Part shown: positions 6,476 to 50,238 of the stretch, piece by piece | How the letters are laid out: each line of letters starts with the position of its first letter | Numbering within the stretch: the stretch's first letter is position 1 | DNA from: a virus | Taxonomy: Duplodnaviria; Caudoviricetes | Reading direction: 5' to 3' (one strand) | Length of the DNA stretch: 54,973 bases | IMG/VR virus record: IMGVR_UViG_3300025141_012176 | Span: 1 to 54,973 of that record | Translations under genes and position numbers: made by a program | The notes under the pieces: model-generated | Told to the model about the DNA's origin: nothing | The model's database searches: none | Seen by the model: the letters and a program-made list of their open reading frames with translations, nothing else

Positions 6476-6487
6476 TATATCTTCCTA

Positions 6488-7075
6488 TTAATAAGTAGCC
6501 GCCAACTCACTTTTATAAGCTTCTAACAGAGAAGTTGCTATGGCGTTTCCAAGCTCTGTTGCGCAGCAGGCCACAACTGGCGTAAATGTGGGGCCGGCTT
6601 CATCAATCAGCGCATCGAGATCTGTGCCTTCGAAGGTGCGCTCTGGATCGTCCTTTACGCAGTCGCCTTGCGTTATCGTTGTTGGTACCCAATGAAAATT
6701 GTCTCCACAGCCACTATTTGGCACACAAGCGCCGGTGTAGGTGCCATCTGCATCGCTCCACACAAAGGTGTCGTCGTATGTATAGCCATCAGGGCAACCC
6801 ATTTCACTCTCTGCTGCGTCTATCTCTTCCGATGGCTCTTCGTCAACCACTTCGGCATAGCCATTGTCGCCTTCTGCCAGACATTGCCATGAATCTTCTA
6901 TGCCGAACGCCGGTAGGCCCGGGACGAAAGTATATGTTTCGCCGTCCGCGCAATTGCCTCCTTCGCCAGTACCAGCGCCGGCGTCGTCCATAGGCACTAC
7001 TTCTCCTGCTGATATACCGGAGCCTTCAGAGATTGGTGGCGTATTGATGTTGTTGTTGTTGGGGAATGTTCCCAT
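6488..7075 (-). CDS. acidic, cysteine-repeat hypothetical protein
   Basis: Likely start ATG 7075 (AGGAGG SD upstream) rather than 7105; three Cys-bracketed segments CADGETY...QC, CPDGYTY...AC, CGDNFHW...DC. Confidence 0.65.
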   Translation of the reverse strand: MGTFPNNNNINTPPISEGSGISAGEVVPMDDAGAGTGEGGNCADGETYTFVPGLPAFGIEDSWQCLAEGDNGYAEVVDEEPSEEIDAAESEMGCPDGYTYDDTFVWSDADGTYTGACVPNSGCGDNFHWVPTTITQGDCVKDDPERTFEGTDLDALIDEAGPTFTPVVACCATELGNAIATSLLEAYKSELAATY

Positions 7076-14200: not shown

Positions 14201-17200
14201 TAAGTGTCGGAAGAGTTGTCTTGTCCGATTATTTCGAACATGTTCTGCTGATCGGCAAGAACATTTCCTTGATTCGTCACCACATAAAAACCTATATTGT
14301 CACCTATGCGGAATTCTGGGATTATAGAGTAGTCTTTTGCTTGTGCTCTAATTTCTGTCGCATATGAATCATAATCTTTATACCATGGATCAGAGGAGCC
14401 TGACACCCAAGCTGCCCTTCCCACTTGTCCGGCGCTTAAGTCATACCTGCCAGCAGATTCGGCAACTTGCCACTCTGCATATCCATACCCAATTGACGCA
14501 GAGCCTGCCCAGTTTCTATCGGTATGTCCATCAGAGTTGGCGAGGCGGCCTGCGGCGACAGGGCGATTGGGATTTGTCACTGATGCGGTGGAGCTAAGAA
14601 GGTGCGGGCGGATGTAGCAAGGGCTAGCATTTGCTACGGCACTAATAGCGCTGTAGTCTATAACAATACTGGAAGGTTGGCCGATGGAGCCTGATGCTCC
14701 CGCCAATGATGCGCCGATATTGTGGAAATATGTATGAGTGTTCATCAACTCGCCAGATATAGCTGTGACGCCGCTGGCGGTTACAGAAACTTCAGTGCCA
14801 GATGCAAAAGTATCAAATGCATCCAGTGGCCACATACTGTGCTTTAGTGCCTGGCCAGTCGTCGTTGGGGGTGCGGTGATGTGTCGATCTGCCCTGTTCT
14901 TCCTCCAGAAGTTATTTGTATAATTATATCTCTGCCTAACTCTGTTGTCGTACATGTTTTCAGAAGAAGGATAAATTATTTCTTTGTAGCTTATAGAAGT
15001 TAGATTCTCTACTGACGATTCAAGCCCAAGCAGCGCGCCGTTAGCATATTGATCTTTAACTAAGTCATAAGCAGTAACACTTCTCACGACAAGAGAAACG
15101 CTTGCGCTGGCATCCACTTTTGAATCGTCGAAATAAACCAAGTCATTTCCATGTGTTGTCCCTACGATGACTTTTAGAGGAGGCTCATTCGCCGGATCGT
15201 AGAAAAATGTATAATTGTTAGATGCTTCGTCATATGTCAAGCCTTCGGTGTAGAGCGTAACGGCGTGCTCGACGGGGCGGTACTTTGAGGACACAGGCGT
15301 TATCCTCTCGAAAACATCGATTGTTCCGAATTCAGATGCGACAGTTGGAGCAGCAGAATCGAAGTTCGCAACCTCGCCGGCTCTTACAATAGAATAAATA
15401 TTGTTCTTTCTTTGGTATCTAGCAACTGGATGCTCTCCTGTTCGTATCTGTTTCCAAGAAGGATATCCATAGGGCCCATTACGATGCAGGAGGAGGCAAT
15501 TTAGCGCGCCTACGCTGCCTGGCGAGCCTGATTCTAGAGTATTCAGCGCTGGTTTTACTGCTGAGTTTATGAAGCCTCCTGTGACAAAATCTTCGGCGCC
15601 GGCGTCAGCTAGCTCACCGGGTGATCCGATGTTGATATAATAAGTCGCATCCTTAGATATAGCGAAACCTAGGTTATTGGTGCTGGCAGCAAGAGAACTA
15701 GTTATAGGCTCTCTGATGTTGGTGTTGAGTCCGACGAAATCTGTAAACATTAGCCCCGTTTGGCCAGAGCCTACATTTGATTTGTCTTTGGCAAATCTTC
15801 TTTCCCCATCTTTCACTACACTGACTAGCTCGCTTGCTGACACGAAGTTAAGTGCGTTCTCCCAGCCCTGCCTGACAAGCACTCCATCTCTGGTCCGGAC
15901 AGCAGAGCTTGAAACTCTTCCACTATAAGGGGCATATCCAAGCACACGGCTGCCAGAAGATGCCAACGATGCGGTAATCCATGAGTATTGCATATCGCTG
16001 CGCGGTATCATGTGGCTAATATAGCCGTTATCATATTTTGAAGATGTTACATATGTTGGGTAATGGGAAACCAAGGAGGTGCTGTCCCCCACTGTACCGG
16101 CGCTGGCTGTCGCATCGAATATTCTTCCGGTGGCACTACCGGTTGAGACATCAGACACGGCAGCAGTGTCGCCACCTCCCAACTTGTACCAAGCGCAGAG
16201 ATTAGCATTTTCTGCCGCATGTGATTCTGTTAAAGCTTGTGGTCCCCATGAAAGATAGTCATCATAATTTCTATTGATGCTCCAAACTTCAGGATCGTTT
16301 AGTATGCCATCCCAAATCATACACTCCGCGATGGCGCCACTGAATGTGCAAGTATCGTAGTTCGAGCCACTGGTTGCAGTGCCGGCGCCGTTCCCTATCA
16401 TAGGTGCCAATTCATTAGGACTAGCAAAGGTAACCGGCGCTGAATCTGATGCATCACCAAATCTAGGATCTCCTATGAATCCACCTCTGCTAGTAGCATA
16501 TTCGATACTACCAGAAGCGTACTTTGCATAATCAGAATCCCGCTCCCACACATAGAATGTAGGTAAGGCGCCTTGAGCATCCTGGTATCCGTCGTTTTGG
16601 TTTACCCCCCCTTCCCCAGCCGCCACCGGTCCAAGCGCATTGGAGGTTCCATCAAAAGTAACTGCCACTAGCGTCCAGACGCCGGGATTAATACACTTGT
16701 CACTTGTCTTTACTACCAAAGAGCGATCATCAGCGGAGCCTCCGGCATATGCCCTATGGAAGAATAGCTTGGCATTATCGGCTTCTGAGCCTGAAATTCC
16801 GAACATCAAGCCGCGGCCGGCTTTGAAAGTGTTTTTATTCATGAATCCAGCGCAGAATATAGACTGCCAACCTCTTTCGCCAGCAGTGAGATCGCTGTGA
16901 TCACCTATGCCATCCCAACGGATCCATGCAGCTATGGTGCATTTATCAGTTCCGTCGGATCCGAAAATATCATCAAAGTAATTCAAAGCAGTCAAGCCAC
17001 CTTCATCTTCTATCTCGACTCTATCATCACGGACTCTGGTTGAGACGCCGCCGGCGGCATCCATTGCTATTCCATCAAAAGTCGTTGCGTTGTGCGCCAC
17101 ATATGTTGGTGTGCCGCTAAGTTCCATACGCTTCAGTCTATTTCTGTTAGTCTTGTGGAGAGAAGGATTAGTTACATAAGTCGTAGAAGACACAGAGCCA

Positions 17201-20200
17201 ATCTGTTGATCGTGCCCAAACTGCCCACTATAGCGCGCTAGATGGGTTCTTAAGCCGTAGGTTGTATTAAGATGATCTCTTACTCGCATGGTGTTGGCTT
17301 CGCCGCTTCCAGAGCCCAATACGGACAAGTTTCGGAATGGCAGTGCATTGTAGACTGAATACTCTTCAGCGTTCTTATCTAAGAATCCTCGTGACATTTG
17401 TTCGGGGCCGCCGGGAGAAGAGAAACGAGAAACGATAACACTATCTGAGCCTGTTAAGTCGCGTCGTGGCAGAGTAAATACGGTTGCGCTCGTGGCGGCG
17501 GTGCCGCCTGTAAAAGTAGTTTCACCATTGGCCGTCATGCCAGTTACTAAAGTTATTGCTGTGTTGCCAGCGGTGCCGGCGGTAGTTTGAGTTAGTGTAA
17601 ATGATGTTTGGGTGCCAGTATCGGTAGCGGGTACAGCCGTCATGTCTAGTTCGAGAGCAGCGATTGCGGCCAAGCATGCAATGTGAAAGGCCTGCGTAGC
17701 CTTCCTAACCTCGGAACCACCACTAATGCCTCCGGTGTTGACTTCCCATATGTGATCGCCTCCGTCGGAAGAAGTGTCACCAAAGTTCTTAGTAGGATCT
17801 GTATGGAAGGTTACGGTTGATCCATCAGCATTTGTCAATATTATATTTGTACCATCGGCACCGTTCAAAGCAGCAGTTCCTACAAATGTAGCAGTGGCAG
17901 CGGTGCTGCCGCTATTTTGTTGGGCGAACCTTAAAGATGTGTCCCTATCTAGCGATGGGCTGTCGTCGGCCGTTGTCGGGCTAGTGATGAAAGAAGGGCC
18001 GTGATCGTTTGCGTCTTCAGGGCGAACAGCAATCAATGTATGAACATTTGTTGTTGCCGGCAGCGCTGATGCGCCACTATGAATTAAGCCCGGAAGAGGT
18101 GCGACATTCGATTTACCAATGGTGTCGTCATTTGAATAACTTCTCTTCAAGAAACGATTGTTCGAAGATCTTCCCGCTATTTGAACAACATCGTAATTGA
18201 AAGTATAGTTTCCTATCTTTGTCGGAGAAGTCGTTGTCGAACCAGTAGCTGTTGATCCAGTTATTTGTTTTATGTTCTTTATATTATAATGGCACTTTCT
18301 TCCGAAGTCGCGACTCCACAAGGCAGAAGGGGTGTGGCCGGCGGGGCGAGAGAACACAATAGCAGACTGAGCGTTTGTTGTGTTGGAAAAACTAAGATCC
18401 CAAGCTTCGGGACGGTTGTGCCGCTCATCAAGAGACTTATTGCTGTCAGCATAGTTCAGGTCGACATGGCGGTTAAAATATCCGCCAACATATTTCTCAG
18501 GAAATGGGCCCTGCATAGGTATCTCTTTATCGGGCCCATAAGCATCAGTATGAAGGTTGGTTATTTGTACAGAAGCCGAGCCGGATAAAGGAGGGCTCCA
18601 GAGAACAACATCGGTTTGATATCCGGTGGAAACCGAGGAACTGACAAGATTAAAAGGAGCAATCAGATGCCCTTTGCCTGAGTTTGTGAAATCATTATTC
18701 TGGTTTGCGTCCGTAAATGCCTTAAAAGTGTACATCCTCTTTGCGCTTGGATTTTGGACATCATCAATATTGGGGAAATTATAAACTTCGGATGCTGAAA
18801 CCGCCAATACGCTAGCGCCCATTGCATTCTTAAGAATCCTGCTCCTAATGAATCCAAGCTTCTTGTTTTTGTTAAAGTTTATTCCGCCTCCGATGTGCCG
18901 AAGGTTATTTGTTTCAAAATTATAAGTCCTAGTGAACACTCTTCTTGGGTATTTTTTTGTTTTAAACGCAGTGCCTCCTTTAGTCGTGACAGAGCCAATG
19001 CCGGAAGCAGAGACATGCGTGGTGATCCTGTCTCTAATTACATTTCTATCTCTATCCAGTTCTGGAGTTGCAGAAGTAAGCCGGGAGTGTTCACGAGCGG
19101 CTCGCTCTCTCCACCAAAGGGCATTCTTCTCTTCAGGAGTTGAGCCGCCAGTAAAAGCAGTTTCACCATTGGCCGTCATGCCAGTTACTAAAGTTATTGC
19201 TGTATTGCCGTCTTCCCCAAGAGTAGTTTGAGTTAGCGTAAATGATGTTTGCGTGCCGGTGTTGGTAGCGGGCACGGCTGTCATATCTAGTTCGCCGGCT
19301 GCAATTGCAGTTAAGCAAGCAATATGGAATGCCTGCGTAGCCTTCCTGATTCCTTCCGACGAAAAATCCCCTCCGGTGTTGATGATCCAGCGATGATCTC
19401 CATCATCGTTAGAAGTGTCACCAAAGTTCTTAGTAGGATCTGTGTGGAAGGTTACGGTTGAACCGTCAGCATTTGTCAATATCAGATTTGTACCATCTTC
19501 ACCAGCCAAGGCGGTAGTTCCTACAAATGTCGCTGTAGCCGCAGTATCGGGAAGGGGTGCATGTCCATGCTCCCAATCGTAAAGCATTTCTGAAATGCCG
19601 AAGAGGCTAGCCTCTGGATCTTCTGCCTTGAATTCAATTGTTGGGAACTTACTCCAATACTTATTCCTCTCAAGGACATGGCTTTCCACCATTGTCCGGA
19701 CATCCTCAGATATATTAGCGGATGCTGGCACTAATTGGCGAATGAACTCTGCTATTGAGGAGTCAATCCACTTATAGTAGTCGACATATTTATCCAGTTG
19801 CGGGGTGTTTCCAATTCTATCAAAGAAAAGCTGCTTTAGTTTTTCAATGTCTTTATATTGAGGACGATAGCGATTTACAGGTTCGCCAATAAGGTTATTA
19901 AAGCCTACAATGCTTCCAAAGAAATTCATCATTTCTTCAGACATAGTGCGATACATGCTCTTTTCTATTGAGTAGAAATAATCAGTTATTCTGTCTTCGG
20001 CGCTGAAGTCTTTGGCCTCGTCTGCCTCTGTGGTGATCTGAATCATGTCGTTCGAATCGATATTTTCAGGCGGCTGCAATCTGGAGGCTCCGACAAAGTT
20101 GAAGTCTATAGCGTTGCCGTCTCCACTCTCCGGAGGCAGGAAGAAGTCACCTTTGCCGGAATGTTGCTTCTTTGCTATGTTTCCAAGCCAACTATATCCC

Positions 20201-23133
20201 CACCCCGCGCCGGCTCTGCTTGTCAGGTCGGAAGAACCAGACGATATATCATCAACATAAAAGATTGAGTCTGCCGATGATGGGTCGCCTGAATCTGAGG
20301 ATGCTGAAATGACATTTCCAAAATCCCAGTGTAAGGCTAGCGTATCAATATGTGGGATGAATGAGCCGGTATTGGGCCCTGCAATAGTCTTTTGTCCCAA
20401 ATATGGACTTCGATATGGATGCTCAACACCATAGTTTCTTGGATCTTTAGCGTGAGCAATAATGGAGCTAGTTGGCAAATAAGATGCCCAGTAACGAACG
20501 CCAGATATTTTTGCATCACTTTTTTGTAGTGCGCTGCCAGTAAAGTCTGTACGGTGGCAGCCAACATACATTCTTTTATGTGCTCGCATGAATTTCTCTG
20601 CGGATGCGGTTCCAATCATCTGTGTCTTATGGAAAGATCTTTCGACGACTCCACCCCTAACATTTGTTCCAAAGAATTCTAATTTATAAGCATTAGCAGA
20701 ACTCCCTGTTACAAGATTTGTTATGCCATAATTTTCTGGGCGTACCGAAACAGAAAGGTTCCACTTCTCATTGTCGTACACTCCCTTGAACAGGCTCGTC
20801 GTTAATTCTGATATGGGCGACGGAGTAGTGGAAGTTAGCGAGAAATACCCATCAGCAGATTCACGATTTGGCTTAATTAAATATACTTGGAAGTTTGCAT
20901 CATCAGGGTCACGCCAGCCAGTACTGGCTGCTGTTTCGCCCTTTGCCGTATGCATACCAAAAATTGAGGCGCTCTGGAATGGCGTGTCGAAATAGAACGA
21001 ATTACGAATGTCTGGCTTTATCGGGAATATTGCCTCGCACTCTGCCGTAAAGCCTAAGTGAGATTCTGCCCTCTCAAGGCTGCCAGTCAAACTTCCAGAG
21101 ATAAAGCCTACGGTATTTGAGTTGCTGGGGTCTGCATATTGATATACAGTTGAAGAGAATTTGTCCGGATCGTTAAAGTTGACATATCTTTTCTTTACTA
21201 CTGTTTCTCGGTAGCTATCTCTCAGATTGTGGTCAGCGTTGTTGGCGTAAAGATTTAGCCGCACAATGTCTTCGTCAACACCGAAACAATGAAGCAGGTT
21301 TCTGATAGATTTTGTTGTACCTTTTGTCTTGAAGATATAAGAAAGGTTGTTATAAATGTTTTGATAAATTAAGTTCTTAACATCATCCACATCTTCTTTA
21401 AAGTTGCGATCTTCGTCGCGCTGCATCATGATATTTAAAACATCAGCCTCAATGAATAGCTCAGGTGTTGATATGCCGAGATTTGAAATTAAATTTGAAG
21501 CAAAAGGATATGGCTTGTGGCTTGACGACATATATCCTGGCGCCTTGACTTTCGGCAATTGCCCAATCATCAGATGCAAGTTGTCAAAATAAGAACCAAC
21601 TAGCTGAACCATGTTTTTGAAAGTTCCATCTCCAGATGTATCATCTTCTTCTGAAATCCAATGTGGTATTGACATCAATAGAGATGAATTGTTTTGGCTG
21701 TCCCAGTCTGAACCTGAGATTGCTAACGATGAACTTAAGCCAGAAACCAGTGAATGTCCCGTATATATGATTGGATCTTCGAACTCCTTGTCAGCGGCTG
21801 AAGCCTCTAGGATAGCAGAGCCTGTATTTCTGGAAGCGCTGTCTGGGTAACCTACCCACACTCCATTAGATATCCTGCCTGAATAATCTAAAACTGTCGA
21901 GTCTGTTGTTGAGTTGCCAGTTATACCTTCATTAAATTTATAGTAAACTCCAAGGGACGCGTTTGCTATGTCTGTATTTGAGCCGCCACGAACTTGCGTG
22001 AACCAACTCCTTCCAATCTCTTTGTGGCTTCTAGCTTCTTTCCAGAACCTAAACTCATCCATAGATGCAGATAGTTTGCCCCATCCTTGAGTCGGATCAG
22101 TATATGCACCGGAGGGCGCTGTCCTCAGTGCTCCGATATTTGCAGTGAGCGATCCAGTTATTTCTCCGAGAGTAGCAGAGCCAGTGCCAACGGTATGATT
22201 AAGGTTGCCATTTACAAATAGCCTGATTTGTTGTTTTGAGCCGGAGTTTGCGACTGTAATTGCATAGTGATTCCAGTCTTCCATGAAGCCAGTTGTAACA
22301 GTGCTGTCGCCTATAGGAACATTATGGACTCCGCCGCCTAGGCTGCCGGCGTGGCTGCCAGACAATATAGTAACTCGAAATGGCGAGCCTGAGGCGCCGC
22401 CTGTCAATTCAACTCTAAATCTACCATAGTTGCCTGCCGTCTTTGCAGCGCCATTCCAAAGATCAAAAATAACCTCTTTTTGTGTCTTAGTCAAATCCCA
22501 TGCCGGCTTCTTAAGCCAGAACTCTACTGTAACTCCGTTGTCAAGATTTGTTCTCAAGTTTGAGAGTCGACTTCCTAGCCTGTCGCTTTGCAAAGCTTTG
22601 TTTGTTGAATAAATGTCAGTATCATAATAGTTCGAACCAGTAAATGTCGTTGCCAAGCTGCCCGTTGGCATGCCACCAGAAGCAGTGTGTGGGCCGCCGG
22701 TGATTCTAATATATTCATAAGAAGCAGTAGCGGGGGCGCCATAGCCTCCAAGATCATTTGTTTCATATGACTGCAAGTCGCCGAAGTTGCGTCCAAGTAT
22801 TGCGTAACCATTGGTTCGTGGGTATTTCTCTTCCAAAACCCATTTGGTAACATTTCCAGCATCATTTAAGAATTTTTGTTGTTCAGCTTCGGAGCCATCA
22901 TATGGCCACTGGTTTGCAATAACGCTCATGGCATCCATATAATATTTCTCGGCAGAGCCATACATGGCAAAGTTTGATGCAGTTGCCCAGTTAATATTGG
23001 GAACTACAGTATCCTTCTGAACCTGTCTTTGTTTAATCTGATCGGCAGATTCCGCATCGGCAGTTCCAAGCCTATCTAAATCTTTACTTGTAACTATACC
23101 TTTTTGATTTTGAAAAAATTCTCTAGCAGACAT
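11230..23133 (-). CDS. giant virion/baseplate structural protein with LamG (concanavalin A-like) domains and two inserted ATAT...FTGG modules
   Basis: 3967-aa ORF; LamG-type motifs TVEFWLK...WNHYAITV...IRLFVNG...MDEFRFW and TIAAWIR...WTLVAVTFDG...FSGAIAECMIWD; IFKTKGTTKSIRNLLHCFG resembles baseplate wedge (gpI/gp7-like) motif. Confidence 0.75.
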   Translation of the reverse strand: MSAREFFQNQKGIVTSKDLDRLGTADAESADQIKQRQVQKDTVVPNINWATASNFAMYGSAEKYYMDAMSVIANQWPYDGSEAEQQKFLNDAGNVTKWVLEEKYPRTNGYAILGRNFGDLQSYETNDLGGYGAPATASYEYIRITGGPHTASGGMPTGSLATTFTGSNYYDTDIYSTNKALQSDRLGSRLSNLRTNLDNGVTVEFWLKKPAWDLTKTQKEVIFDLWNGAAKTAGNYGRFRVELTGGASGSPFRVTILSGSHAGSLGGGVHNVPIGDSTVTTGFMEDWNHYAITVANSGSKQQIRLFVNGNLNHTVGTGSATLGEITGSLTANIGALRTAPSGAYTDPTQGWGKLSASMDEFRFWKEARSHKEIGRSWFTQVRGGSNTDIANASLGVYYKFNEGITGNSTTDSTVLDYSGRISNGVWVGYPDSASRNTGSAILEASAADKEFEDPIIYTGHSLVSGLSSSLAISGSDWDSQNNSSLLMSIPHWISEEDDTSGDGTFKNMVQLVGSYFDNLHLMIGQLPKVKAPGYMSSSHKPYPFASNLISNLGISTPELFIEADVLNIMMQRDEDRNFKEDVDDVKNLIYQNIYNNLSYIFKTKGTTKSIRNLLHCFGVDEDIVRLNLYANNADHNLRDSYRETVVKKRYVNFNDPDKFSSTVYQYADPSNSNTVGFISGSLTGSLERAESHLGFTAECEAIFPIKPDIRNSFYFDTPFQSASIFGMHTAKGETAASTGWRDPDDANFQVYLIKPNRESADGYFSLTSTTPSPISELTTSLFKGVYDNEKWNLSVSVRPENYGITNLVTGSSANAYKLEFFGTNVRGGVVERSFHKTQMIGTASAEKFMRAHKRMYVGCHRTDFTGSALQKSDAKISGVRYWASYLPTSSIIAHAKDPRNYGVEHPYRSPYLGQKTIAGPNTGSFIPHIDTLALHWDFGNVISASSDSGDPSSADSIFYVDDISSGSSDLTSRAGAGWGYSWLGNIAKKQHSGKGDFFLPPESGDGNAIDFNFVGASRLQPPENIDSNDMIQITTEADEAKDFSAEDRITDYFYSIEKSMYRTMSEEMMNFFGSIVGFNNLIGEPVNRYRPQYKDIEKLKQLFFDRIGNTPQLDKYVDYYKWIDSSIAEFIRQLVPASANISEDVRTMVESHVLERNKYWSKFPTIEFKAEDPEASLFGISEMLYDWEHGHAPLPDTAATATFVGTTALAGEDGTNLILTNADGSTVTFHTDPTKNFGDTSNDDGDHRWIINTGGDFSSEGIRKATQAFHIACLTAIAAGELDMTAVPATNTGTQTSFTLTQTTLGEDGNTAITLVTGMTANGETAFTGGSTPEEKNALWWRERAAREHSRLTSATPELDRDRNVIRDRITTHVSASGIGSVTTKGGTAFKTKKYPRRVFTRTYNFETNNLRHIGGGINFNKNKKLGFIRSRILKNAMGASVLAVSASEVYNFPNIDDVQNPSAKRMYTFKAFTDANQNNDFTNSGKGHLIAPFNLVSSSVSTGYQTDVVLWSPPLSGSASVQITNLHTDAYGPDKEIPMQGPFPEKYVGGYFNRHVDLNYADSNKSLDERHNRPEAWDLSFSNTTNAQSAIVFSRPAGHTPSALWSRDFGRKCHYNIKNIKQITGSTATGSTTTSPTKIGNYTFNYDVVQIAGRSSNNRFLKRSYSNDDTIGKSNVAPLPGLIHSGASALPATTNVHTLIAVRPEDANDHGPSFITSPTTADDSPSLDRDTSLRFAQQNSGSTAATATFVGTAALNGADGTNIILTNADGSTVTFHTDPTKNFGDTSSDGGDHIWEVNTGGISGGSEVRKATQAFHIACLAAIAALELDMTAVPATDTGTQTSFTLTQTTAGTAGNTAITLVTGMTANGETTFTGGTAATSATVFTLPRRDLTGSDSVIVSRFSSPGGPEQMSRGFLDKNAEEYSVYNALPFRNLSVLGSGSGEANTMRVRDHLNTTYGLRTHLARYSGQFGHDQQIGSVSSTTYVTNPSLHKTNRNRLKRMELSGTPTYVAHNATTFDGIAMDAAGGVSTRVRDDRVEIEDEGGLTALNYFDDIFGSDGTDKCTIAAWIRWDGIGDHSDLTAGERGWQSIFCAGFMNKNTFKAGRGLMFGISGSEADNAKLFFHRAYAGGSADDRSLVVKTSDKCINPGVWTLVAVTFDGTSNALGPVAAGEGGVNQNDGYQDAQGALPTFYVWERDSDYAKYASGSIEYATSRGGFIGDPRFGDASDSAPVTFASPNELAPMIGNGAGTATSGSNYDTCTFSGAIAECMIWDGILNDPEVWSINRNYDDYLSWGPQALTESHAAENANLCAWYKLGGGDTAAVSDVSTGSATGRIFDATASAGTVGDSTSLVSHYPTYVTSSKYDNGYISHMIPRSDMQYSWITASLASSGSRVLGYAPYSGRVSSSAVRTRDGVLVRQGWENALNFVSASELVSVVKDGERRFAKDKSNVGSGQTGLMFTDFVGLNTNIREPITSSLAASTNNLGFAISKDATYYINIGSPGELADAGAEDFVTGGFINSAVKPALNTLESGSPGSVGALNCLLLHRNGPYGYPSWKQIRTGEHPVARYQRKNNIYSIVRAGEVANFDSAAPTVASEFGTIDVFERITPVSSKYRPVEHAVTLYTEGLTYDEASNNYTFFYDPANEPPLKVIVGTTHGNDLVYFDDSKVDASASVSLVVRSVTAYDLVKDQYANGALLGLESSVENLTSISYKEIIYPSSENMYDNRVRQRYNYTNNFWRKNRADRHITAPPTTTGQALKHSMWPLDAFDTFASGTEVSVTASGVTAISGELMNTHTYFHNIGASLAGASGSIGQPSSIVIDYSAISAVANASPCYIRPHLLSSTASVTNPNRPVAAGRLANSDGHTDRNWAGSASIGYGYAEWQVAESAGRYDLSAGQVGRAAWVSGSSDPWYKDYDSYATEIRAQAKDYSIIPEFRIGDNIGFYVVTNQGNVLADQQNMFEIIGQDNSSDTYPQSSVTASFYEIYSTSDFMKNFATIKSDLEGVAEPAKLTLTCRAAIKFLPYDGFYPCERTLALAKQFSSSYASSVSFEGGIAATNEDGFDAANAPTKGSWRAFLQPMMAPGILFNSIKSGLAVDYPIMTHGSKIRKTKLGNSDYWGLGFDGVGESPLFDEDGRNGNNKTDPDNITNQSFNLGTFYDERLLIKTNADIGNTASLDYNAGVWDYRIPFEAILNPEKYILNTPLIDHEPDPRVRIDVTASWDGGGNFLYKMMANNFCAEVSNFFLNDGQNTKITSRGEDAMNLAIQGGDIYGARVKLRRSMNKARSWDEDVTEGGGSNTAIKDTFAATGSYELPQDPRNQTGMVETFTMYSRPSAFGPPVWGRIHQKIHMNTYNTGSNNFHRESMSGSDWGTMDSLEGYYWSFTPPYYDGEAWADILFAPSSTKEYTLDELMSEVKIQYWRHDPGIHDPNAGNFAAVKTLADERYPKFTTNGMHSSSLYSGENINRNAMQISASLNLLSQEITDTFQVTVNKATGKTEISNLADQKVWTIQPKFETPMFNFNPSYNPAQRASDLTIPTHGSESVPSGMWHQYGAIENSAHRGIFMEINDIPQNWLQNHGWPRTTDIYQSSLSSTLTGADLEYQRMQDAANMKSLVDLVGFDSTPTKLGQIRDTLTVEEAIVAVPFIEKSGEKSFFALEPNQVAQALGRPLAVEFEPAGPSIMEQINMMGRFILPPTFDFVTNEDVPPIAMYIFPFSYTFDQDDLAHIWQNVAPPCSKKLSLAEASISHDLLLNELMGYANEEEAKFADIGAQKAFAGQFGDITMVNAPFQDKVQWMVFKAKQKGKINYYETIAGGESTQDTTLTDAWESAAGAQKSLPFGTNTNPNYGYNWPYDYFSIIESAQIESEIGFTPLFSVVQALENNAGKVGGKEEADLNDGSGSKRDQHKAGGQDFGKAGVGGDGGDGGGGGGGGAWDGPPGKAPDPNNPGFLLDGSDDPDYEAQ
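11318..11365. repeat. GC-rich low-complexity repeat encoding poly-Gly
   Basis: ccgcctccgccgcctccgcctccgtcgcctccgtcgccgccc, encoding GGDGGDGGGGGGGGA near the C-terminus of the 3967-aa protein. Confidence 0.8.
17503..17904 (-). repeat. in-frame insertion module, copy D (134 aa, TAATAT...FTGG)
   Basis: 402 nt; near-identical to 19144-19545 and homologous to the 24245-25042 copies at both protein and DNA level. Confidence 0.9.
19144..19545 (-). repeat. in-frame insertion module, copy C (134 aa, TAATAT...FTGG)
   Basis: 402 nt; shares long identical DNA runs with copy D, e.g. gtttcaccattggccgtcatgccagttactaaagttattgctgt. Confidence 0.9.
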
Positions 23134-23140
23134 TAATCAC

Positions 23141-25507
23141 CTAGTCCTCGACATCTTCTACTCTAAATTTAAATGTTTCTGGCTGTTCTACCCACTGGCT
23201 TACTGCTCCGTTGTAATACGCGAAATTCATGCCATATGCATATCCGCCCTCAAGAACATTCATATCTAAGTCTAGGTAATTTCCAGAAACATCAAACGAT
23301 AGTAGTGTGTGCAAAGTAGATCCTGTTCCGTATGGTATCACTTCTAAGTTGTCAATAACCCGATGTACCCTGAACGAAGCGCTCTCAATTGTGGTATTCG
23401 AAATAGCAGTAGACGCTTTAGTATAAATAGTTGGGCTCCAATCTTTTTCGCGGACGAACAATCTAAATCTGGCTGACTTCTCTCTTCTATTGTACTCTGG
23501 GCGAAGGTTCGTTATGGCGGTAACATAAGTCGGATCCGGGCTGTAATTGCTAGCCTTAAGTCGAGTTGCTGTGAATGAGCCTGTGTGATATTCTGTTGTC
23601 GCCTTCCACCATACATCATAATATGTCTGCGGTGCGGCGGAGGAAGATGTCAAGCAGAAACTAGCGCTATATATTCCAGTGGATACATATCCACCAGTCA
23701 TAGCAGTCTTAGATGTGTCATTAACATGTGTGCCGTCTTTGTGAAGCTCCAATTTATCACCGGATGGCTCAGTATCATCAGATGAGCCAGAAAATAGACT
23801 GACATACACCTGCCCTGTTCCAAGATCTGGTACATTTCTTAACTGGCCTCTGAAATAATTGTAGAAATATATTGTATTAAGATTTTCATCTGCCGTCATC
23901 AAAGAGCTACTGAAATATATATTTCCCCTTTCATCTTTTGTTCTTGAATCCCATCTTGCCTCAATGTATGGGCGCTTAAAGAAATACTCGCTTGTTCTGC
24001 CGAAAAACTTTTTAGTATAATATGAATTTGTTGAGCCTGTCAAGTTGGTGGAAGAGGATGCCTCGCTGCTGGCTGTTATCATCACGCCAATTCCATAATC
24101 AGCAATCGGGGTACCATCTATCCACTCCTCTACTAGATGAGTAATATCAAGCTCGATATCTTCAGTGCCTTTGTCAAAATAGACACTATAATTGGATCCT
24201 GTAAGATAATCTCCTCCTGGGGACGCCCAAGTTCCGTGTGGTATGCCACCAGTAAAAGCAGTTTCACCATCTGCCGTCACACCAGTTATTAAAGTTATAG
24301 CTGTATTTCCAGCAGTCCCAACAGTAGTTTGAGTTAGTGTAAACTCTTCTTCGTCACCCCAGGTAGTGGGACTAATCGTCATGTCTAATTCGCCGGCGTC
24401 AATTGCACCTTTACATGCAATCCAGAATGCCTGCGTAGCCTTCCTGACTTCGCTGCCTCCACTGATGCCTTCGGTGTTGACTCTCCACCGTTGTCCTATG
24501 CCGCCGGTAAAAGCAGTTTCACCATCTGCCGTCACACCGGTTATTAAAGTTATTGCTGTATTGCCATCAGTCCCAACAGTAGTTTGAGTTAGTGTAAACT
24601 CTTCTTCGTCACCCCAGGTAGTGGGACTAATCGTCATGTCTAGTACACCGGCGTCTATTGCTGCCTTGCATGCAATCCAGAATGCCTGCGTAGCCTTTCT
24701 GACTTCGCTGCCTCCGGAAATATCTCTGGTGTTAACAGTGAAGGGTGACGCTGTTTCGTCGACCGTATCGCCAAAGTTCTTGGTAGGATCCGTGGTAAAT
24801 GTTATAATTTCGCCATCAGCATTTACCAATTTAAAAGATGTGCCATCTGCGTCGTCCAAGGATGCATTTCCTATAATTGTCGCTGTAGCCGCGGCGGTGA
24901 GATCGGCGGTGACATCGCCGAAGTTGAGAGTGGGATCCGTAGTAAATGTTACAGTTGATGCATCAGCATTTACCAATATCAAAGATGTACCACTTGCGTC
25001 GTCCAAGGATGCATTTCCTATAATTGTCGCGGTGGCAGAAGTAGGTACACTATTGAGCGTGCTTCCGTTGGCATATATCCAGTTTGAGCCGATATTACCA
25101 TTGACAAGATCTTTATACTCGAACATATCCAAGCCTGTTCCTTCTTGCCACGAAGCTGATACCGGCGACACACTAAGATAGAAGGCACGCGGCGTGGTTT
25201 GAGAATGCGGTGCATTAAACATCCTCAAATAGAAATTCACAGAGCCGGATGCAGGAATAGTTGTCGCTGTTCTATCCGATTCTATGGAATTTGTGCCCGT
25301 CACTGGAAACTTTATAAGGAATCTTGACAACTCTGAACTGCTAGCGGCGTTTGATACCGATGCTGTTGCCGATTGTCCGTATATAGAGAACACTTCCAAA
25401 ATATCAGAAGCGCCCATGTTGGATCCAGTTGCCCTTGTGCTTAGATTTTCAAGATAAGCATTAGTAATTGTGTTGTCTGCGGTTGCCCAATATCTTTTTA
25501 TTGCCAT
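23141..25507 (-). CDS. virion/baseplate structural protein carrying nested ATAT...FTGG modules
   Basis: 788 aa, directly downstream of gp6-like gene with TAATG overlap; WQEGTG...W...GGDY...DITHLVEEWIDG...GIGV...KFFGR...RPYIEARW resembles DNRLRE/CBM96-like domains. Confidence 0.7.
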   Translation of the reverse strand: MAIKRYWATADNTITNAYLENLSTRATGSNMGASDILEVFSIYGQSATASVSNAASSSELSRFLIKFPVTGTNSIESDRTATTIPASGSVNFYLRMFNAPHSQTTPRAFYLSVSPVSASWQEGTGLDMFEYKDLVNGNIGSNWIYANGSTLNSVPTSATATIIGNASLDDASGTSLILVNADASTVTFTTDPTLNFGDVTADLTAAATATIIGNASLDDADGTSFKLVNADGEIITFTTDPTKNFGDTVDETASPFTVNTRDISGGSEVRKATQAFWIACKAAIDAGVLDMTISPTTWGDEEEFTLTQTTVGTDGNTAITLITGVTADGETAFTGGIGQRWRVNTEGISGGSEVRKATQAFWIACKGAIDAGELDMTISPTTWGDEEEFTLTQTTVGTAGNTAITLITGVTADGETAFTGGIPHGTWASPGGDYLTGSNYSVYFDKGTEDIELDITHLVEEWIDGTPIADYGIGVMITASSEASSSTNLTGSTNSYYTKKFFGRTSEYFFKRPYIEARWDSRTKDERGNIYFSSSLMTADENLNTIYFYNYFRGQLRNVPDLGTGQVYVSLFSGSSDDTEPSGDKLELHKDGTHVNDTSKTAMTGGYVSTGIYSASFCLTSSSAAPQTYYDVWWKATTEYHTGSFTATRLKASNYSPDPTYVTAITNLRPEYNRREKSARFRLFVREKDWSPTIYTKASTAISNTTIESASFRVHRVIDNLEVIPYGTGSTLHTLLSFDVSGNYLDLDMNVLEGGYAYGMNFAYYNGAVSQWVEQPETFKFRVEDVED
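24245..25042 (-). repeat. in-frame insertion module, outer copy A (split by copy B)
   Basis: N-half TSATATIIG...NFGDVTADL (25042-~24899) and C-half IGQRWRVNTEG...FTGG (24499-24245) flank a complete inner copy. Confidence 0.85.
24500..24895 (-). repeat. in-frame insertion module, inner copy B (132 aa)
   Basis: AAATATIIG...NFGDTVDETASPFTVNT...RKATQAFW...FTGG; its C-half is almost identical in DNA to 24245-24480. Confidence 0.85.
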
Positions 25508-27309
25508 TACATTATTGTCCCTTTAATATCGGCATCAGGAAATTTAATCTCAAATGCTACATTATGTGGCATTATTATATATCTTCCATCTGGAGATGTA
25601 TTCGCGGCGATGCTGAATCGATAATCAGAATAATTTCCGCCGACATTCTGGGTTACTTTGACTCTTTTGACATCTGAAACGCCCTCAACTTTATTTAGAG
25701 CAGTTTGAATTTCTGAGATGTAGAACGGCTCTCCAATATATGTTGGGTTCGCGTATTTCGCTTTAAGCATATCTTGTGTTGCCTGAAGAACATCATACTT
25801 ATTCGAATCATGTGTCGCGACGACGGTGTACTCAATTTGTATGTTGATAATTTTTCCATCAATTATGTCTATTGTGTCGTTCATCATCTTATATTGTGCC
25901 AGCCAAGTCTTAAGATTGTTCTTTACAGTGTTGTTTGCTGATGTTAAATATCCGTTACTGTCCTCACCCAATACATAAAGATTAAGATTTCTTTTTATTG
26001 AATCCAAGTCTCTAACAATTCTACACCTCCTTATGGCGCCATACCTTTCTGGCATTGCATATGTAAGCGCTTCATAATCTCTTTTCGTGACTGCCCTGTT
26101 TTGCGTAGCGAAGTGATCTAGAGTTCTTCTCTTTAGTTCGTCCGTAGTCGGCAGAGAAACATCTCCAATGATTGGCTCTTCGTTGTAAACCTCAAAAGAA
26201 TTAATCACATCATCTTTCTTTGACTTAACAAGAACGAGAGGGTTTGCAAACTCTACAAAAGTATTGCCAACTTTAGTTATGCCACCAACAGCGGCATTAG
26301 CGTTGGCAGCCGTTACTGTTCGATATGTTATGTCAACATTCGTATTGGAAGGCGCCACGCCAAACTTATCTGTACCCAGAAGTTTCGATGGATCGAAGGT
26401 GGTGTCCGTTATGTAATCTCTGCCAAACATATCAAGCACAACATTAGTTGGCTCCGCCACAGAAGACCCTGTAAGCTCTGAGTCTGACCCAAATCCGAAT
26501 TGCAAATAAGTATTGTTTCTTTCCCTTTCAACCACAAATCTTCGTGGCACCACAAATGGCTTTAATATGGAAGACACTCCGTCAGACGAGGCTTCCGAGT
26601 TTACAATATCTTTATAGACGACATTTTGTGACAAGTAATCAACCTCGTAATACTGGTGCCCCTCATCATCAACCACTTTCAAAATCTCTGCAATGTTAGA
26701 TGCTGGAACTTTTACTCTTAAAAACCTTTCATAGCCTCCAACTGTAATCGTCTTTTGTCCCATTAGCCCAGATATAATCCTCGCGTAGGCTTTTATTGCA
26801 TAATGTGTTGGCAGCCCAGTGGAAGAATCCGTCCTAGCCACAACATGTGAATGTTTTGATGAATCGAAAAACAAATCTTCAACCAACAAGAAAGATGCAC
26901 CGTTGTCTCCTGAGAACGATGACCCCCTACGCAGAGTTGGTAAATAATTAGGATCAATGCCCATTCCACTAGTGGTGGCTGGGACTATTGCATAAATAGC
27001 TAGTACGCCATGGGTTGAAGGCGAGCCTCGAAACTTAAACCCCAGTTGCCGGGCATGTCTAAGGACATTGTTATATTCTAGCGCTGTATCCATAAAGGAC
27101 TCGTTAACTGCGTAGTCGAGATAGAAAGACAGAACATCACTGGTATAAGCAACCGTGTCAAGCATCAAAGAGCCGAAGGACGCTTCGCTAAAGTCTTTAT
27201 AAGTGTCGGGGTAATAAATCTTTGCCTGATCAATCAATTCGTTCTTGATCGAAGAGAAATCTCGACTAAGATAATTTATCTTTCTTGTGTGTTTTTTATC
27301 TCTTGCCAT
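25507..27309 (-). CDS. baseplate wedge subunit (T4 gp6 / baseplate J-like)
   Basis: INYLSRDFSSIKNEL, DVLSFYLD...NESFMDTA, LQFGFG, QNRAVTKRDY motifs typical of gp6; follows gp25. Confidence 0.88.
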   Translation of the reverse strand: MARDKKHTRKINYLSRDFSSIKNELIDQAKIYYPDTYKDFSEASFGSLMLDTVAYTSDVLSFYLDYAVNESFMDTALEYNNVLRHARQLGFKFRGSPSTHGVLAIYAIVPATTSGMGIDPNYLPTLRRGSSFSGDNGASFLLVEDLFFDSSKHSHVVARTDSSTGLPTHYAIKAYARIISGLMGQKTITVGGYERFLRVKVPASNIAEILKVVDDEGHQYYEVDYLSQNVVYKDIVNSEASSDGVSSILKPFVVPRRFVVERERNNTYLQFGFGSDSELTGSSVAEPTNVVLDMFGRDYITDTTFDPSKLLGTDKFGVAPSNTNVDITYRTVTAANANAAVGGITKVGNTFVEFANPLVLVKSKKDDVINSFEVYNEEPIIGDVSLPTTDELKRRTLDHFATQNRAVTKRDYEALTYAMPERYGAIRRCRIVRDLDSIKRNLNLYVLGEDSNGYLTSANNTVKNNLKTWLAQYKMMNDTIDIIDGKIINIQIEYTVVATHDSNKYDVLQATQDMLKAKYANPTYIGEPFYISEIQTALNKVEGVSDVKRVKVTQNVGGNYSDYRFSIAANTSPDGRYIIMPHNVAFEIKFPDADIKGTIM

Positions 27310-27329: not shown

Positions 27330-27728
27330 CTAGAAATTTAATTCTAATGTTGAATCAGCGCCGGACGGGATAACCTTGAATCTAATCGATATTCCAAGAA
27401 AGTTTGGATCCATATTCTCATATAAAGATGGAGACTCCGATTTTCCTGCGCTAGTGAAATTCACAGATGAAATATTAATATATGGAAGATATTTCTTTGC
27501 TTGTTTCTTTATTTTTGATTCTATTCTGCCCATTGTTTTTTGATTTAGTGGCTCAAATAAAAACTTCTTGAGCCCAACACCAAAATTTGGATCCATAATG
27601 CGCTCTCCGGGGACAGTCAGTAGTACCATTTTTAAGTTCTGTTTCGCAACTGAATTGATATCAGTTAGCGTCCCAAATCCGTATACGCCATCTCTAACAA
27701 ATGGTAATCTCGCTCCAAAACCTGACAT
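27330..27728 (-). CDS. baseplate wedge subunit gp25/GPW-like
   Basis: KQNLKMVLLTVPGERIMDPNFGVGLKKFLFE is the gp25/GPW signature. Confidence 0.92.
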   Translation of the reverse strand: MSGFGARLPFVRDGVYGFGTLTDINSVAKQNLKMVLLTVPGERIMDPNFGVGLKKFLFEPLNQKTMGRIESKIKKQAKKYLPYINISSVNFTSAGKSESPSLYENMDPNFLGISIRFKVIPSGADSTLELNF

Positions 27729-27781: not shown

Positions 27782-30700
27782 CTAACAATCGTTTCCGTCT
27801 TTGTCGTATGGATTGCCCCGGCTTCTGCTCTTGTGGAACCAGCTTACATCCAAGTCAGGAAGCAAGCCGAAAAAGTCTCGCATATTTTCTAAGAAGTTGG
27901 TTTGGCTATCGTGCGAGTCCTCATCGGTAAAGGAAAACTCTCTTGATTTCCACATGGCTTTGAACAATCTACGGCATTGCTCCTTAGACTTGCTAAATGT
28001 CTTTGACTGATCCCATTTGTCAAACTTCGCCGAGAATGGGAGATTTCCAACATCTTTTCGAGCTATCGGTGGGTCGGCGCCATCAGAATCGGCATATGGG
28101 TTCCACCCATCACTTTCTCCGATAGAAGGCACAAACCCTCTAGCTGTATATATCGCCAATAATCCCTGAAGCTTCTCAAGTGGGAAAACATATTCAAGCA
28201 ACAGTTCAAGTCTTGGCTCTTTTGCAAGAAGCTCTGCCATACAGTCGACATCGTAAGAGTCAACGGCAGCATTGAAGCCATAGTCATCAATCGCCATATC
28301 AAGAGCGTCAATCTCTGTTGAAACCAAGGGGATGAGTAATAGATCTGGCCCCGAGGTGACTTCGGGGTTGGGGTTGGCGTCATCGGATAGCACATATTTT
28401 TGACCATATTGAGGATCCATAGGCTCCTGAGTATCGATGGTGCTCGCTGCCGGCGAATAAGTCCTGTCCCTAATAGTATTAATGTTGCTAAAGTTTAAGT
28501 TTGGATCGGCGGCTTTCACAGTCGCTGAAAGACTTTCGGGCAGTGCGTATGACAACCTAAGTCCATATCGAACCCCCACAGAGCCTTCAAGATTGTTGCT
28601 GGCGTCAAGAGACAAGTTTCCGAAGTACTCAGATAATGGAACTGAGGTGTCTATGTTTGAATTGGTGATCAGCGAATCAATAAATTCTTGCCAATCTTCA
28701 AGAGAAGTTACTCCTCTCGTTAGTTCCGATCTGTCAAGTATTTCTTGCGGTATTATGCCCACTGGTATCGGAAACTGGCTGGCTTCGGCGAGATCCTCTA
28801 TTACAACATATTTCTCCAAGAAAAAGAAGCCGGCTTCCACATCTTTCGGATCTATTGTTTCCAATTGCGATAGTGGGCTAGCCAGGAACGCTCCATCGTC
28901 GACCTCTATGATTACACCAACATCCATTATTGTCGGAGTGGCTCCGGATCGGAGATCTTCCGGTAAATCAATTTCCAAACTGCTTCCCAAGCACATGCCA
29001 CTAGTTCCCAGAAAATATTTCTTAAGATTGTCAATCGAAGGATTAATCCCGATGGGAGACAATGTTTCTCTGGCAGAGTCTGCCATGAATTCCAATTGCT
29101 CTTGCACGAGAGCAGAGAATATTGTTTTGGCATCAGCCTCTGTTTGCTGAACTCCCTGAAGAACTTTAAGTTGTCTGTATTCTTTGAGGCTCGTGAAAAT
29201 ATTAATCTTGTCTCCCAGTATCTCCTCGTCGGCTTCTTGTGCCGATCCTAGATCGCTCTCTGAAGGGAAGTTTACTTCAAAATTAATTTGAAAATCGTTT
29301 AGAGAGTCGAGCGCTTGCTGGGTGCCCCCTGTAACTTCTATTTCTCCAGCGTCAACTCTCCTTCCATAAACTTGAACTGCCTGCTCCAGCAAGGCATACC
29401 AATATTTTTGATCCCTAAAGAGCCCAAGTCTTATAGTATTATTCTTTATGTCTTCTGAAATCTTTGTCGTGATGTAGTCTGCGAAGATGGCGCCGGCTGT
29501 TGGCACAGTAAATTTACCGAACACAGGCATAGCTTTCATAAATTCTTCAGAAACATATATTCTTATCAAAGCAGCCAGCACTCCTTCAATGTTGGCAGCG
29601 GCTGTCCTGTCGAGGATTCTGGCATAAGGAAGCTCTTTAATGCATTCTTGATCTTGTGATAGTCTGGGATCGTCGGGCATGTTGTTAAAAACTTCATCAA
29701 CCCTCTCGGTGATATCGGCAAAAGTGATTAGCTTTTGAGGCTGCGGATCACAGCCGCATATTTCTGGCACTAGTGCCTGTAGTATGCCTGTCCAGCCGGT
29801 TGCCACCGGTGGCGATACATAATATGGGGCGCGCATGTAATTACCTCCATATAGCTGTGGATCTAGGAAAGTAACTCTTGGGTGCGGAATCGCTGTGATT
29901 GTGCCATCTTCATCAACCTCAGCACTAATACCTAACGGTCCGATGTCTTTCTTGGCTTTCACTGCTTCAAGATATTGTGCGCCAGAGAGTCCGGACAAAC
30001 TGGAGCCATAGTATTTGTCGCCTACTGTGTTTCCTACCGCGGCATCTGGCTCTAGATAGGCAAGATCAACATCGGTGATCGAAGAGTCCGACCATCCATG
30101 GCTCCAAAGAATTTCTCCATCGGCTATACTTTCAGCGAAATACGCGAGGAATCGTGTGATGATATTGTCCCAGAACTCTTGTGAGCCTCCAAATTCGGCG
30201 CCGATGGACTCAACAGCAGCGTCGACGCACTCGGATTGACGCAAGGATTCCATGAGGATCTGCCCAAAGCATTCAATTTGCGGGGAGAATTTTGCGGCAG
30301 ACAAATCGTATTTCGATTTCTCGCTGGTAGCTGCTGATGACAATGTGCTTTTAGAAGTAAATGACATCACTGCCTCAGATTCTTCCACCGTTTTGTCAAA
30401 AAGTGTTGACTGGTATTTATCAACTATTCTAAGTTGAGATACATCATCCGTGTTGGGAACTGCGGCGTCACCGTCATAAGTATATGTAAAATATTCAAAA
30501 TTAATATCAAATCCGTATTTATATGTTTCGCCGTCGCCGTTGCCATCTTGATTGTTGTCTCTGAATTCTAATACCAGATCTGGCTCCTTCGAAGGTATTG
30601 TCCCCATTGCTATCAACTGATCTTCGGTTAATCCCAGTAGAGCCTCAAGGTAGGCAAAGTCATCAACATAGTTTATGTTGGTGGCAAATTCAGCGTCCCT

Positions 30701-38171: not shown

Positions 38172-38364
38172 CTTGTTCTTGACTCTCGTTATCAAACTTA
38201 ACAAGAGGGGGGTTCATTACCATGAGTCCCTCCTCAGAATTCTTAAGCTTGAATCCCTTGATCACAGGCACAATATCGCTCTGCTCCATCAAAGACTTCT
38301 GCAAAGCCATCATTAAAGCACCAACGGCTTGATCTGAAAGTTGCATATTTTGTTCTTTACTCAT
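38164..38364 (-). CDS. small hypothetical protein
   Basis: 66 aa, GGAG SD, overlaps both neighbours. Confidence 0.65.
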   Translation of the reverse strand: MSKEQNMQLSDQAVGALMMALQKSLMEQSDIVPVIKGFKLKNSEEGLMVMNPPLVKFDNESQEQDA

Positions 38365-40183: not shown

Positions 40184-40207
40184 AGCTTCCCCTCATTATT
40201 TTTCATT

Positions 40208-44825: not shown

Positions 44826-44826
44826 A

Positions 44827-50226: not shown

Positions 50227-50238
50227 ATTTTCCTTCTT

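Follow-up and report, generated by a model that had tools for sequence, protein, structure and literature searches.

The window, that is, the 54,973 bases forming the entire virus record IMGVR_UViG_3300025141_012176 (Caudoviricetes) and an estimated 30% or so of the genome, carries in two adjacent virion genes four in-frame copies of a small module that starts at an ATAT motif and stops at an FTGG motif. The module, some 134 residues long, is an accessory domain that folds on its own and represents a sequence family not described before. We consider it probable that it is a surface domain exchanged horizontally and shuffled by recombination, passive recombination being favoured over a dedicated mobile element. 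Among close relatives its sites are filled, empty or occupied by another cassette, its DNA is young within genes of old flanks, its copies are mosaic, and it recurs in virion proteins that are otherwise unrelated.

All copies lie on the minus strand. Copies A (17503–17904) and B (19144–19545), each of 402 nucleotides (nt) and 134 residues, occupy residues 1745–1878 (site A) and 1198–1331 (site B) of a giant virion protein of 3967 amino acids (11230–23133), defined from its open reading frame (ORF) and its relatives. The other two form a nested pair in the gene of a 788-residue virion protein (23141–25507), located just downstream of a gene for a J/gp6-like baseplate wedge protein. Here the complete inner module C (24500–24895; 396 nt, 132 residues) enters a variable loop of the outer module D, dividing it into an N-part of 49 residues (24896–25042; 147 nt) and a C-part of 85 residues (24245–24499; 255 nt) that resumes at ...QRWRVNT...; the two parts add up to 402 nt and remain in frame. 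At the protein level B is 83% identical to A, C 66%, the N-part of D 65% and its C-part 73%, and the C-halves of C and D are 89% identical over 245 nt. Uninterrupted outer-type modules found elsewhere read ...DVTADIGDH.WRVNT... across the loop, and in nested pairs the inner copy lies between ...DVTAD..(GD) and ..GQRWRVNT. The initial annotation was correct as to the number of copies, their positions in two adjacent genes and their lengths in multiples of three, as well as to their sharp boundaries, since similarity runs from the ATAT motif to the FTGG motif in every context examined. A profile search of the whole record recovered the five known pieces and no further one. Of the mosaic details it had listed, the 15-mer shared by the starts of B and C stands; ISGGSEVRKATQAF, which it had taken as a link of D to A and B rather than to C, in fact occurs in A, C and D; copy B is the one that departs, reading DFSSEGIRKATQAF at that position.

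Evidence that the module varies in presence as a unit is found at site A. Among the matches listed for the stretch 16900–19100 there were 24 marine runs, ten of which carry at least half of the sampled words, and contigs of four runs (X2, X5, X8 and X11) were compared with the stretch; being contigs and not reads, they give no allele proportions. Three of these runs, X5, X8 and X11, stem from three studies, and in each of them a contig joins position 17489 to position 17909 with five other letters between them. The joint is an in-frame loss of 414 nt, namely module A plus the next four residues, so that the empty allele reads ...NSGSGATVF... and the filled one ...NSGS[module]TAATSATVF.... The flanks of the empty allele are 95–100% identical to the window (0 differences in 103 positions and 26 in 825 for X8, 4 in 331 and 16 in 338 for X11), and the depth of the X8 empty-allele contig, 44.3, equals that of its flanks (44–48). 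In X2, contigs with zero differences cross both boundaries of module A. Two other joints were rejected as alleles: the one from 17601 to 17729 occurs in a single contig with a side of 20 and was treated as an artefact, and the one from 19100 to 17503 is an artefact in which the end of copy B, lying beyond the compared stretch, falls on copy A. The sequence TAATSAT (at 17488–17502), directly downstream of module A in the gene, is a partial copy of the module start TAATAT, and its TAAT part is missing from the empty allele of the site; a tandem donor or a microhomology junction may have left it behind.

In the 788-residue family the nested pair is placed at a cassette hot spot flanked by conserved SNW and GGDY anchors, and the residue distance between the anchors was scored in the best 120 of 3958 relatives. 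The site is empty (fewer than 40 residues) in 91 of them, and 28 carry a single insert of 120–179 residues. These inserts belong to several very different subtypes, always with an ATAT-type start, an F(T/S/A)GG-type end and an inner T(L/I/V)TQ...G..GN motif. The nested pair (287 residues) occurs in one of the 120, the protein of the window itself. Relatives that are 91–96% identical in their C-terminal region differ in occupancy, the site holding one of four cassette types or none: P0064 (513 residues) is empty and P0061, P0062 and P0063/P0065 carry three further types. The orthologue P0019 carries one type-1 module at the site. The exchange is also visible in DNA. Locus L107 is 92.5% identical to the window upstream of the site and 94.6% downstream, and between these flanks the 821-nt nested block (25078–24257) is replaced by 365 unrelated bases; in L103 and L105 the block is likewise replaced, by 389 bases.

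Among orthologues of the giant, filled and empty states vary at about ten positions. The syntenic relative L006, whose J protein is 50% identical and whose 788-type protein is 59% identical and has the same nested pair, carries a giant that is filled at approximately residues 114/131 and 2479/2544 in the numbering of the window, where the window is empty; site A, filled in the window, is empty in L006. Other sites are filled at about residues 219–264 (L014, with a nested pair, L047/L054 and P0016), at 313/322 (P0053, L015), at about 665–685 (nested, in P0005 and P0008), at 728–748 (single in P0010, double in P0029, and L077), at about 800 (L062) and at one position of P0051. Where P0053, P0005/P0008 and P0010/P0029 carry a module, the window has none. 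Site B holds a module in P0012 and P0059 as well as in the window. Among 87 ORFs or proteins compared as orthologues, 22 bridge it with −10 to 8 residues, against 130–140 in the window, the junction of P0029 being a clean empty one; the remaining orthologues do not reach or do not bridge the site. Modules at E < 1e-3 were found in one of 72 giant-orthologue ORFs (70 of 77 related loci). Orthologues of both genes, near-identical ones included, hence show the empty sites that the initial annotation led one to look for, and neither fixed positions of the module nor a divergence equal to that of its flanks is observed.

Three further features are recorded here. The short giant P0016 (1909 residues) carries its single module exactly at the joint of a very large internal deletion, the flanks matching window giant residues 167–247 and 2360–2394 and the downstream joint not lying at site A; this layout would fit a module-mediated in-frame rearrangement. 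In L006 two type-2 modules (6287–6661 and 12794–13174), located some 2170 residues apart in the giant, are 90% identical to each other and about 25–30% to the type of the window, which indicates duplication within the genome, or homogenisation, of a second subtype. Finally, P0030 and P0043 bear four tandem modules of a further divergent subtype, the unit thus also forming arrays.

Synonymous sites date the module relative to its surroundings. Between the window and L006 or L009 synonymous divergence (pS) has reached saturation on either side of the block in the 788-residue gene (0.76–0.94) and also in the J gene (0.81). Within the nested block it drops to 0.20 (L006) and 0.23 (L009) in the outer C-part, to 0.31 and 0.28 in the outer N-part and to 0.50 and 0.48 in the inner copy. 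Third-codon-position identity in 20-codon windows is 0.65–0.90 inside the block, with one dip to 0.30 at codons 256–275, and outside it mostly 0.05–0.55, a few windows being higher and one just upstream reaching 0.75. The G+C content at third positions (GC3) is equal in module and flanks, substitutions have no base bias, and RNA folding gave z-scores of −1.21 and −2.49, the structures of A and B differing from each other, with no consistent conserved structure. The low pS of the module against saturated flanks, with equal GC3 and no consistent RNA structure, implies that the module DNA is much younger than the genes that host it.

The relationships among the copies point in the same direction. 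Window copy B shares 89% identity with the inner copy in the 788-type protein of L009 and only 83% with its neighbour A; the copy of P0010 (site 5) is 91% identical to that of P0007 (site A), the copy of P0004 is 94% identical to that of P0009, and a phrog_376 tail protein carries a copy 87% identical to the inner one of L006. As judged from sequence identity, the nearest neighbours of a module ignore host protein and site. A tree was built from 32 type-1 modules. Six came from the loci; the catalogue of 68 modules supplied the other 26, each with at least 58% identity to A. On it the giant changes label seven times for nine rows, the 788 family four times for four and the sheath three times for three, and only two near-identical pairs cluster. 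Recombination among the copies, anticipated by the initial annotation, is significant by the pairwise homoplasy index (PHI): for 15 DNA copies with 201 informative sites, left after removal of two near-duplicates, the index is 0.599 against a permuted value of 0.745 ± 0.013, and none of 1000 permutations was as low. In three of four genomes compared (the window, L006 and L007) the inner copy and the outer C-part of the nested pair have lineage-specific motifs in common, and the exception, L009, has an inner copy of the type found in the giant of the window; such a pattern fits gene conversion plus replacement.

With the module masked, the proteins that bear it fall into at least ten multi-member host families plus singletons, and those that can be named are all parts of the virion. 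They comprise tail sheath proteins (P0035, P0036 and L019–L023, at differing positions), podovirus-type tail proteins of phrog_376 (P0006, L007), a crAss muzzle protein (P0022), a protein with a T7-fibre N-domain and a beta-helix (P0025), a baseplate wedge protein (P0018) and LamG proteins, including the giants. The same domain is found, then, in unrelated structural proteins of unrelated phages. Nested composites with the same outer/inner topology occur in the 788-residue family, at two sites of the giant, in the phrog_376 protein and in P0004; recurrence in unrelated hosts implies that the composite itself has been copied as a unit.

The family has escaped description so far. No Pfam, PHROG or NCBIfam model covers the module, and full-text literature searches listed no paper describing it. 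A profile of the copies gave no match at E ≤ 1 among 177,635 distinct PDB sequences, tblastn with module types 1 and 3 found nothing in 50,697 GenBank phage records, and no relative was present among 185,579 prokaryote species scanned with one genome per species. Among 1.84 billion representative proteins the profile found 56 at E ≤ 1e-3, 24 of them at E ≤ 1e-30. In the ESM Atlas the module falls in unnamed clusters, plus one crAss auxiliary capsid cluster at 0.90 that is to be taken as a lead only, and in BFVD there are three matches at E ≤ 1e-3, all uncharacterised phage proteins.

AlphaFold2 folded the single module from a 28-row alignment with a predicted local distance difference test score (pLDDT) of 91.5 and a predicted template modelling score of 0.87. 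The predicted fold opens with a beta-hairpin N-part and continues through a variable loop to an 18-residue helix (65–82) and a beta-rich C-part, with strands at residues 2–9, 20–24, 30–40, 47–49, 52–58, 88–91, 102–109, 116–118 and 123–125. Copy C enters D after residue 49, at the least confident and most indel-rich loop of the model. The nested block (274 residues), folded without an alignment, gave no confident model (pLDDT 40.1). Complex prediction with the two halves of D as partners scored 0.57, the best of three controls scoring 0.00, and at least 93% of contacts were shared between runs, with a partner pLDDT of at least 74. The support it lends is weak, given that 116 of 157 solved complexes and 2 of 215 mismatched pairs reach the mark used and that, at scores of 0.60 or below, 18 of the 157 solved complexes pass together with both passing mismatches. 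The prediction is consistent with the halves of D re-forming one domain around the inner copy, and is not decisive.

Taking these observations together, we propose that movement of the module follows from its architecture and from ordinary recombination. Filled and empty alleles differ by the whole module in colinear proteins, and module C interrupts module D; a domain placed in a host chain in this manner would be expected to have termini that emerge together. The module would enter and leave the chain at one point, its ends lying side by side, and could be accommodated in frame within loops of virion proteins, presumably exposed at the surface, without disrupting them. Insertion into its own variable loop would produce the nested pair of the 788-residue protein. 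DNA recombination between co-infecting phages, and between paralogous copies, would spread and replace the module, with gene conversion acting among copies and illegitimate or short-homology events making new sites. The module would encode no machinery of its own, and an uncultured marine phage clade would in this way have come to carry, in its tail and baseplate proteins, cassette-like sites that are filled, empty or swapped. Similar in role to the Ig-like domains of phages, the module is probably an exposed accessory domain, putatively for adhesion or decoration, and a candidate for surface variation. Accordingly, of what the initial annotation had proposed, a plug-in domain shuffled by recombination is borne out by the filled and empty sites, by a module pS far below that of the flanks and by the PHI result, and homogenisation by gene conversion by the motifs that inner and outer copies have in common. 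Its alternative of a self-propagating element finds no enzyme in the window, and no terminal repeat or target duplication, to sustain it, and its suggestion of an undescribed virion diversification mechanism goes beyond the ordinary recombination that the data support.

Several points weigh against the proposal. At any single site insertion and deletion are indistinguishable. Nucleotide identity between copies in different contexts tops out at 85–88% and does not approach 100%, and given this ceiling no very recent jump has been caught. Over all host labels the module tree needs 20 changes against a shuffled mean of 22.1, a value as low being reached in 7 of 200 shuffles; this clustering, slightly above that of shuffled labels, means that some vertical signal remains, and recombination itself makes any single module tree approximate. 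Neither mobility machinery in the window nor terminal inverted repeats or target-site duplications at the copies were found, and for that reason we infer the route of movement indirectly; a trans-acting factor could reside in the remaining 70% or so of the genome. The resemblance to tail-sheath and flagellin insertion domains, for which the initial annotation had suggested a Foldseek comparison, is moderate in score. Foldseek gave nothing at E ≤ 1e-3 in the PDB (best E-value 0.88), and VIA-align aligned the model with FliD (6iwy_A, Z 7.6, root-mean-square deviation 2.8 over 100 residues), flagellin (4nx9_A, Z 7.0), a phage baseplate chain (9f4b_FD, Z 6.8), T4 gp11 (1el6_A, Z 5.7), 5h5v_A (Z 5.1–5.4) and the tail sheaths 8kee_A (Z 6.6), 9cb9_A (Z 6.6), 9khy_a (Z 5.9) and 7kh1_A6 (Z 5.4). 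The top-ranked matches span the whole model, and all lie below Z 8, where the tool cautions of a merely common arrangement; they are read as resemblance in fold class and not as membership.

Of the other explanations, the one that survives best is active mobility. The module would then be an in-frame cassette of the "domain transposon" or homing type, and a dedicated enzyme acting in trans, its gene lying in another part of the phage genome, would recognise the conserved ends and copy the cassette into new sites. It would account for boundaries that are sharp and constant in all contexts, for the many insertion sites within one protein family, for a nested composite propagated as a unit and for differences in occupancy among near-identical genomes. 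The 5′ codons of type-1 modules are strongly conserved, reading ACA GCG ACA ATT GTA GGA in most copies, and some 70% of the genome lies outside the window. Comparison of its 32 ORFs with PHROGs, however, revealed no endonuclease, transposase, integrase or reverse transcriptase, the copies have no inverted terminal repeats in common, and the alleles of site A contain no target-site duplication, with no flank sequence duplicated, the scans and the allele comparison agreeing with the initial annotation on the lack of a transposase, a reverse transcriptase and a target-site duplication. No pair from different contexts exceeds 88% nucleotide identity. In the model the conserved ends fall on the first beta-strand and on the turn that closes the fold, where protein constraint would account for them; the end codons of type-1 copies are no better conserved than their other codons, and in other cassette types the conservation is lost. 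An active cassette is for these reasons unlikely, and it is doubtful that the ATAT-coding 5′ and FTGG-coding 3′ ends are DNA recombination signals for a phage enzyme. If they were, marine phages would possess a dedicated system to paste, swap, nest and excise surface domains of the tail and baseplate, a programmed diversification of the virion surface distinct from diversity-generating retroelements and from tail-fibre gene swapping. Two known classes of element were also considered and rejected. The copies start with T/A-A-A-T-A-T and end with F-T-G-G, lacking the terminal Cys/Ser or His-Asn of an intein, and are followed by T, S and I in the window and by A in P0010. As regards a DNA transposon or miniature inverted-repeat transposable element, copy A has one weak pair of repeats (20 nt, 75% complementary) not located at both ends, copy B has none, and the nested block has no terminal inverted repeats at its ends.

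Less probable still is a scenario in which the domains are ancestral and fixed, and differential in-frame loss together with gene conversion, with no new insertions, gave the present distribution. The filled or empty state cannot be polarised site by site, direct repeats favour deletions, and gene conversion, itself supported here, could alone keep the copies within a genome similar. Against this, modules 65–90% identical are found in unrelated sheath, podovirus-type, crAss muzzle and T7-type fibre proteins, and for host proteins of different tail types no common domain-bearing ancestor is possible. The single module-bearing ORF among 72 giant orthologues would require very many parallel deletions, the low pS of the module between genomes relative to its flanks requires exchange between genomes, and the nested pair needs at least one insertion.

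Simple vertical inheritance, with old paralogues kept alike by purifying selection on the protein, can be given very little credit. The protein is under such selection, the ratio of nonsynonymous to synonymous divergence among copies being 0.12–0.58; but synonymous sites are conserved too (pS 0.20–0.50 in the module against 0.76–0.94 in the flanks), the equality of GC3 in module and flanks leaves no role for codon bias nor does RNA folding offer a consistent conserved structure, and sites are filled or empty among orthologues and near-identical genomes. Production of the mosaic copies by hypermutation of a diversity-generating retroelement, or by faulty assembly, would suit repeated, similar and non-identical copies in putative host-recognition genes, and has next to no chance of being right: the 84 differences between A and B involve 19 A, 27 C, 16 G and 22 T with no adenine bias, in three copy pairs the differences affect all four bases, no reverse transcriptase was found by PHROG scan among the 32 ORFs of this partial genome, the same architecture occurs on independent contigs, and the zero-difference contigs of another run cross the boundaries of module A.

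Every gene of the module region is on the minus strand, in the order gp25-like, J/gp6-like, 788-residue and giant ORFs. The first encodes a gp25/GPW-like baseplate wedge protein of 132 residues (27330–27728; Pfam PF04965, 2.2e-12) and the second the J/gp6-like wedge protein of 600 residues (25507–27309; phrog_219, 1.2e-19, and phrog_6, 3.4e-16), whose vicinity places the module-bearing genes in the baseplate cluster. To judge from neighbouring genes and fold alone, the module hosts would be located at the baseplate. The sole Pfam match of the giant is Laminin_G_3 (residues 195–373), and its C-terminus is a long Gly-rich tail (11230–11500). Upstream of the gp25-like gene, an ORF of 2143 residues (27782–34213) has a Cys/Pro-rich N-terminus and no PHROG match. 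An ORF of 186 residues on the plus strand (24621–25181) overlaps the nested block in antisense, and relatives have similar ones; no antisense ORF of at least 80 residues lies over copy A, and that over the nested block looks like a by-product of Ala/Thr/Gly-rich coding and not a gene. A PHROG scan located a block of sugar-metabolism genes on the minus strand (38357–53734), with a phosphoheptose-isomerase-like ORF (38357–38719), two nucleotide-sugar epimerase-like ORFs (43094–44825), three glycosyltransferase-like ORFs (45654–50226) and a PhoH-like gene (52379–53734). With a Thr/Ser-rich module on the same record as such a block, glycosylation of the virion is conceivable on sequence grounds.

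The J protein has its closest cultured counterparts in Microcystis phage Mel-JY01 (33.5%) and Flavobacterium phage immuto (30.1%). In the 50,697 GenBank phage records tblastn gave no match to the C-terminal part of the 788-residue protein (23141–24220), which has 3958 metagenomic relatives at E ≤ 1e-5, on contigs of up to about 200 kb, and the phage clade carrying this family appears to be uncultured.

Phage surface proteins set host range and environmental adhesion, and how they acquire their features is usually reconstructed from distant comparisons. Here one small domain can be traced as alleles, as swapped cassettes, as copies at many sites and as a nested composite, and it is common to myovirus-type, podovirus-type and crAss-like tail proteins. 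It constitutes a tractable natural system for the study of in-frame domain insertion and exchange, supplies an insertion-tolerant scaffold with a map of permissive sites useful for phage-tail engineering, and its description as a family aids the annotation of a very abundant group of uncultured marine phages.

Promiscuous decoration domains and the swapping of tail-fibre segments are already known. Ig-like domains (I-set, FN3 and Big_2) are reportedly carried as accessory domains by phage virion proteins. Like the module, they look non-essential and recur among structural proteins that have no relationship to one another, in phages equally unrelated; for both, horizontal spread and decoration of the virion surface are supposed. 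They differ from it in fold, the module being predicted as an alpha/beta domain with its 18-residue helix packed on strands and not as a beta-sandwich, and in location, since Ig-like domains are placed mostly at termini whereas the module interrupts internal loops, occupying numerous positions in a single protein and even a loop of its own. Moreover, the mobility of the module is documented in DNA, by empty alleles and by the contrast at synonymous sites.

The best structural matches of the module, namely the insertion domain (InD) of tail sheaths, domain D3 of FliD and the outer domains of flagellin, are surface-exposed insertions in a conserved core. In passages of the paper on Vibrio phage XM1 (PMC10457771) the sheath InD is said to resemble FliD D3, and its authors suggest there that it was acquired by gene exchange. 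In the sheath protein P0048 the module occupies residues 107–240, the same region as the matched sheath insertion domains (84–212). Sequence similarity to these domains is undetectable and Z is only 5–7.6; and while they are described as fixed in one protein, the module is 60–90% identical across many and its presence varies.

The receptor-binding segments of T-even tail-fibre adhesins and the central hypervariable region of flagellin are swapped by recombination. There, as at the hot spot of the 788-residue gene, conserved flanks permit in-frame replacement of a surface segment; in those systems one locus varies, whereas the module is also copied to unrelated loci and proteins and nests in itself. 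Rickettsia palindromic elements are short palindromic DNA repeats inserted in frame in many unrelated genes and have no defined fold. The module shares with them the condition of a repeated DNA unit lying in frame in many coding sequences without destroying them, and differs in not being palindromic and in encoding a domain predicted with confidence. What is new, therefore, is the domain family itself, its many internal insertion sites, its nesting within itself, and the evidence from populations and synonymous sites that its exchange is ongoing.

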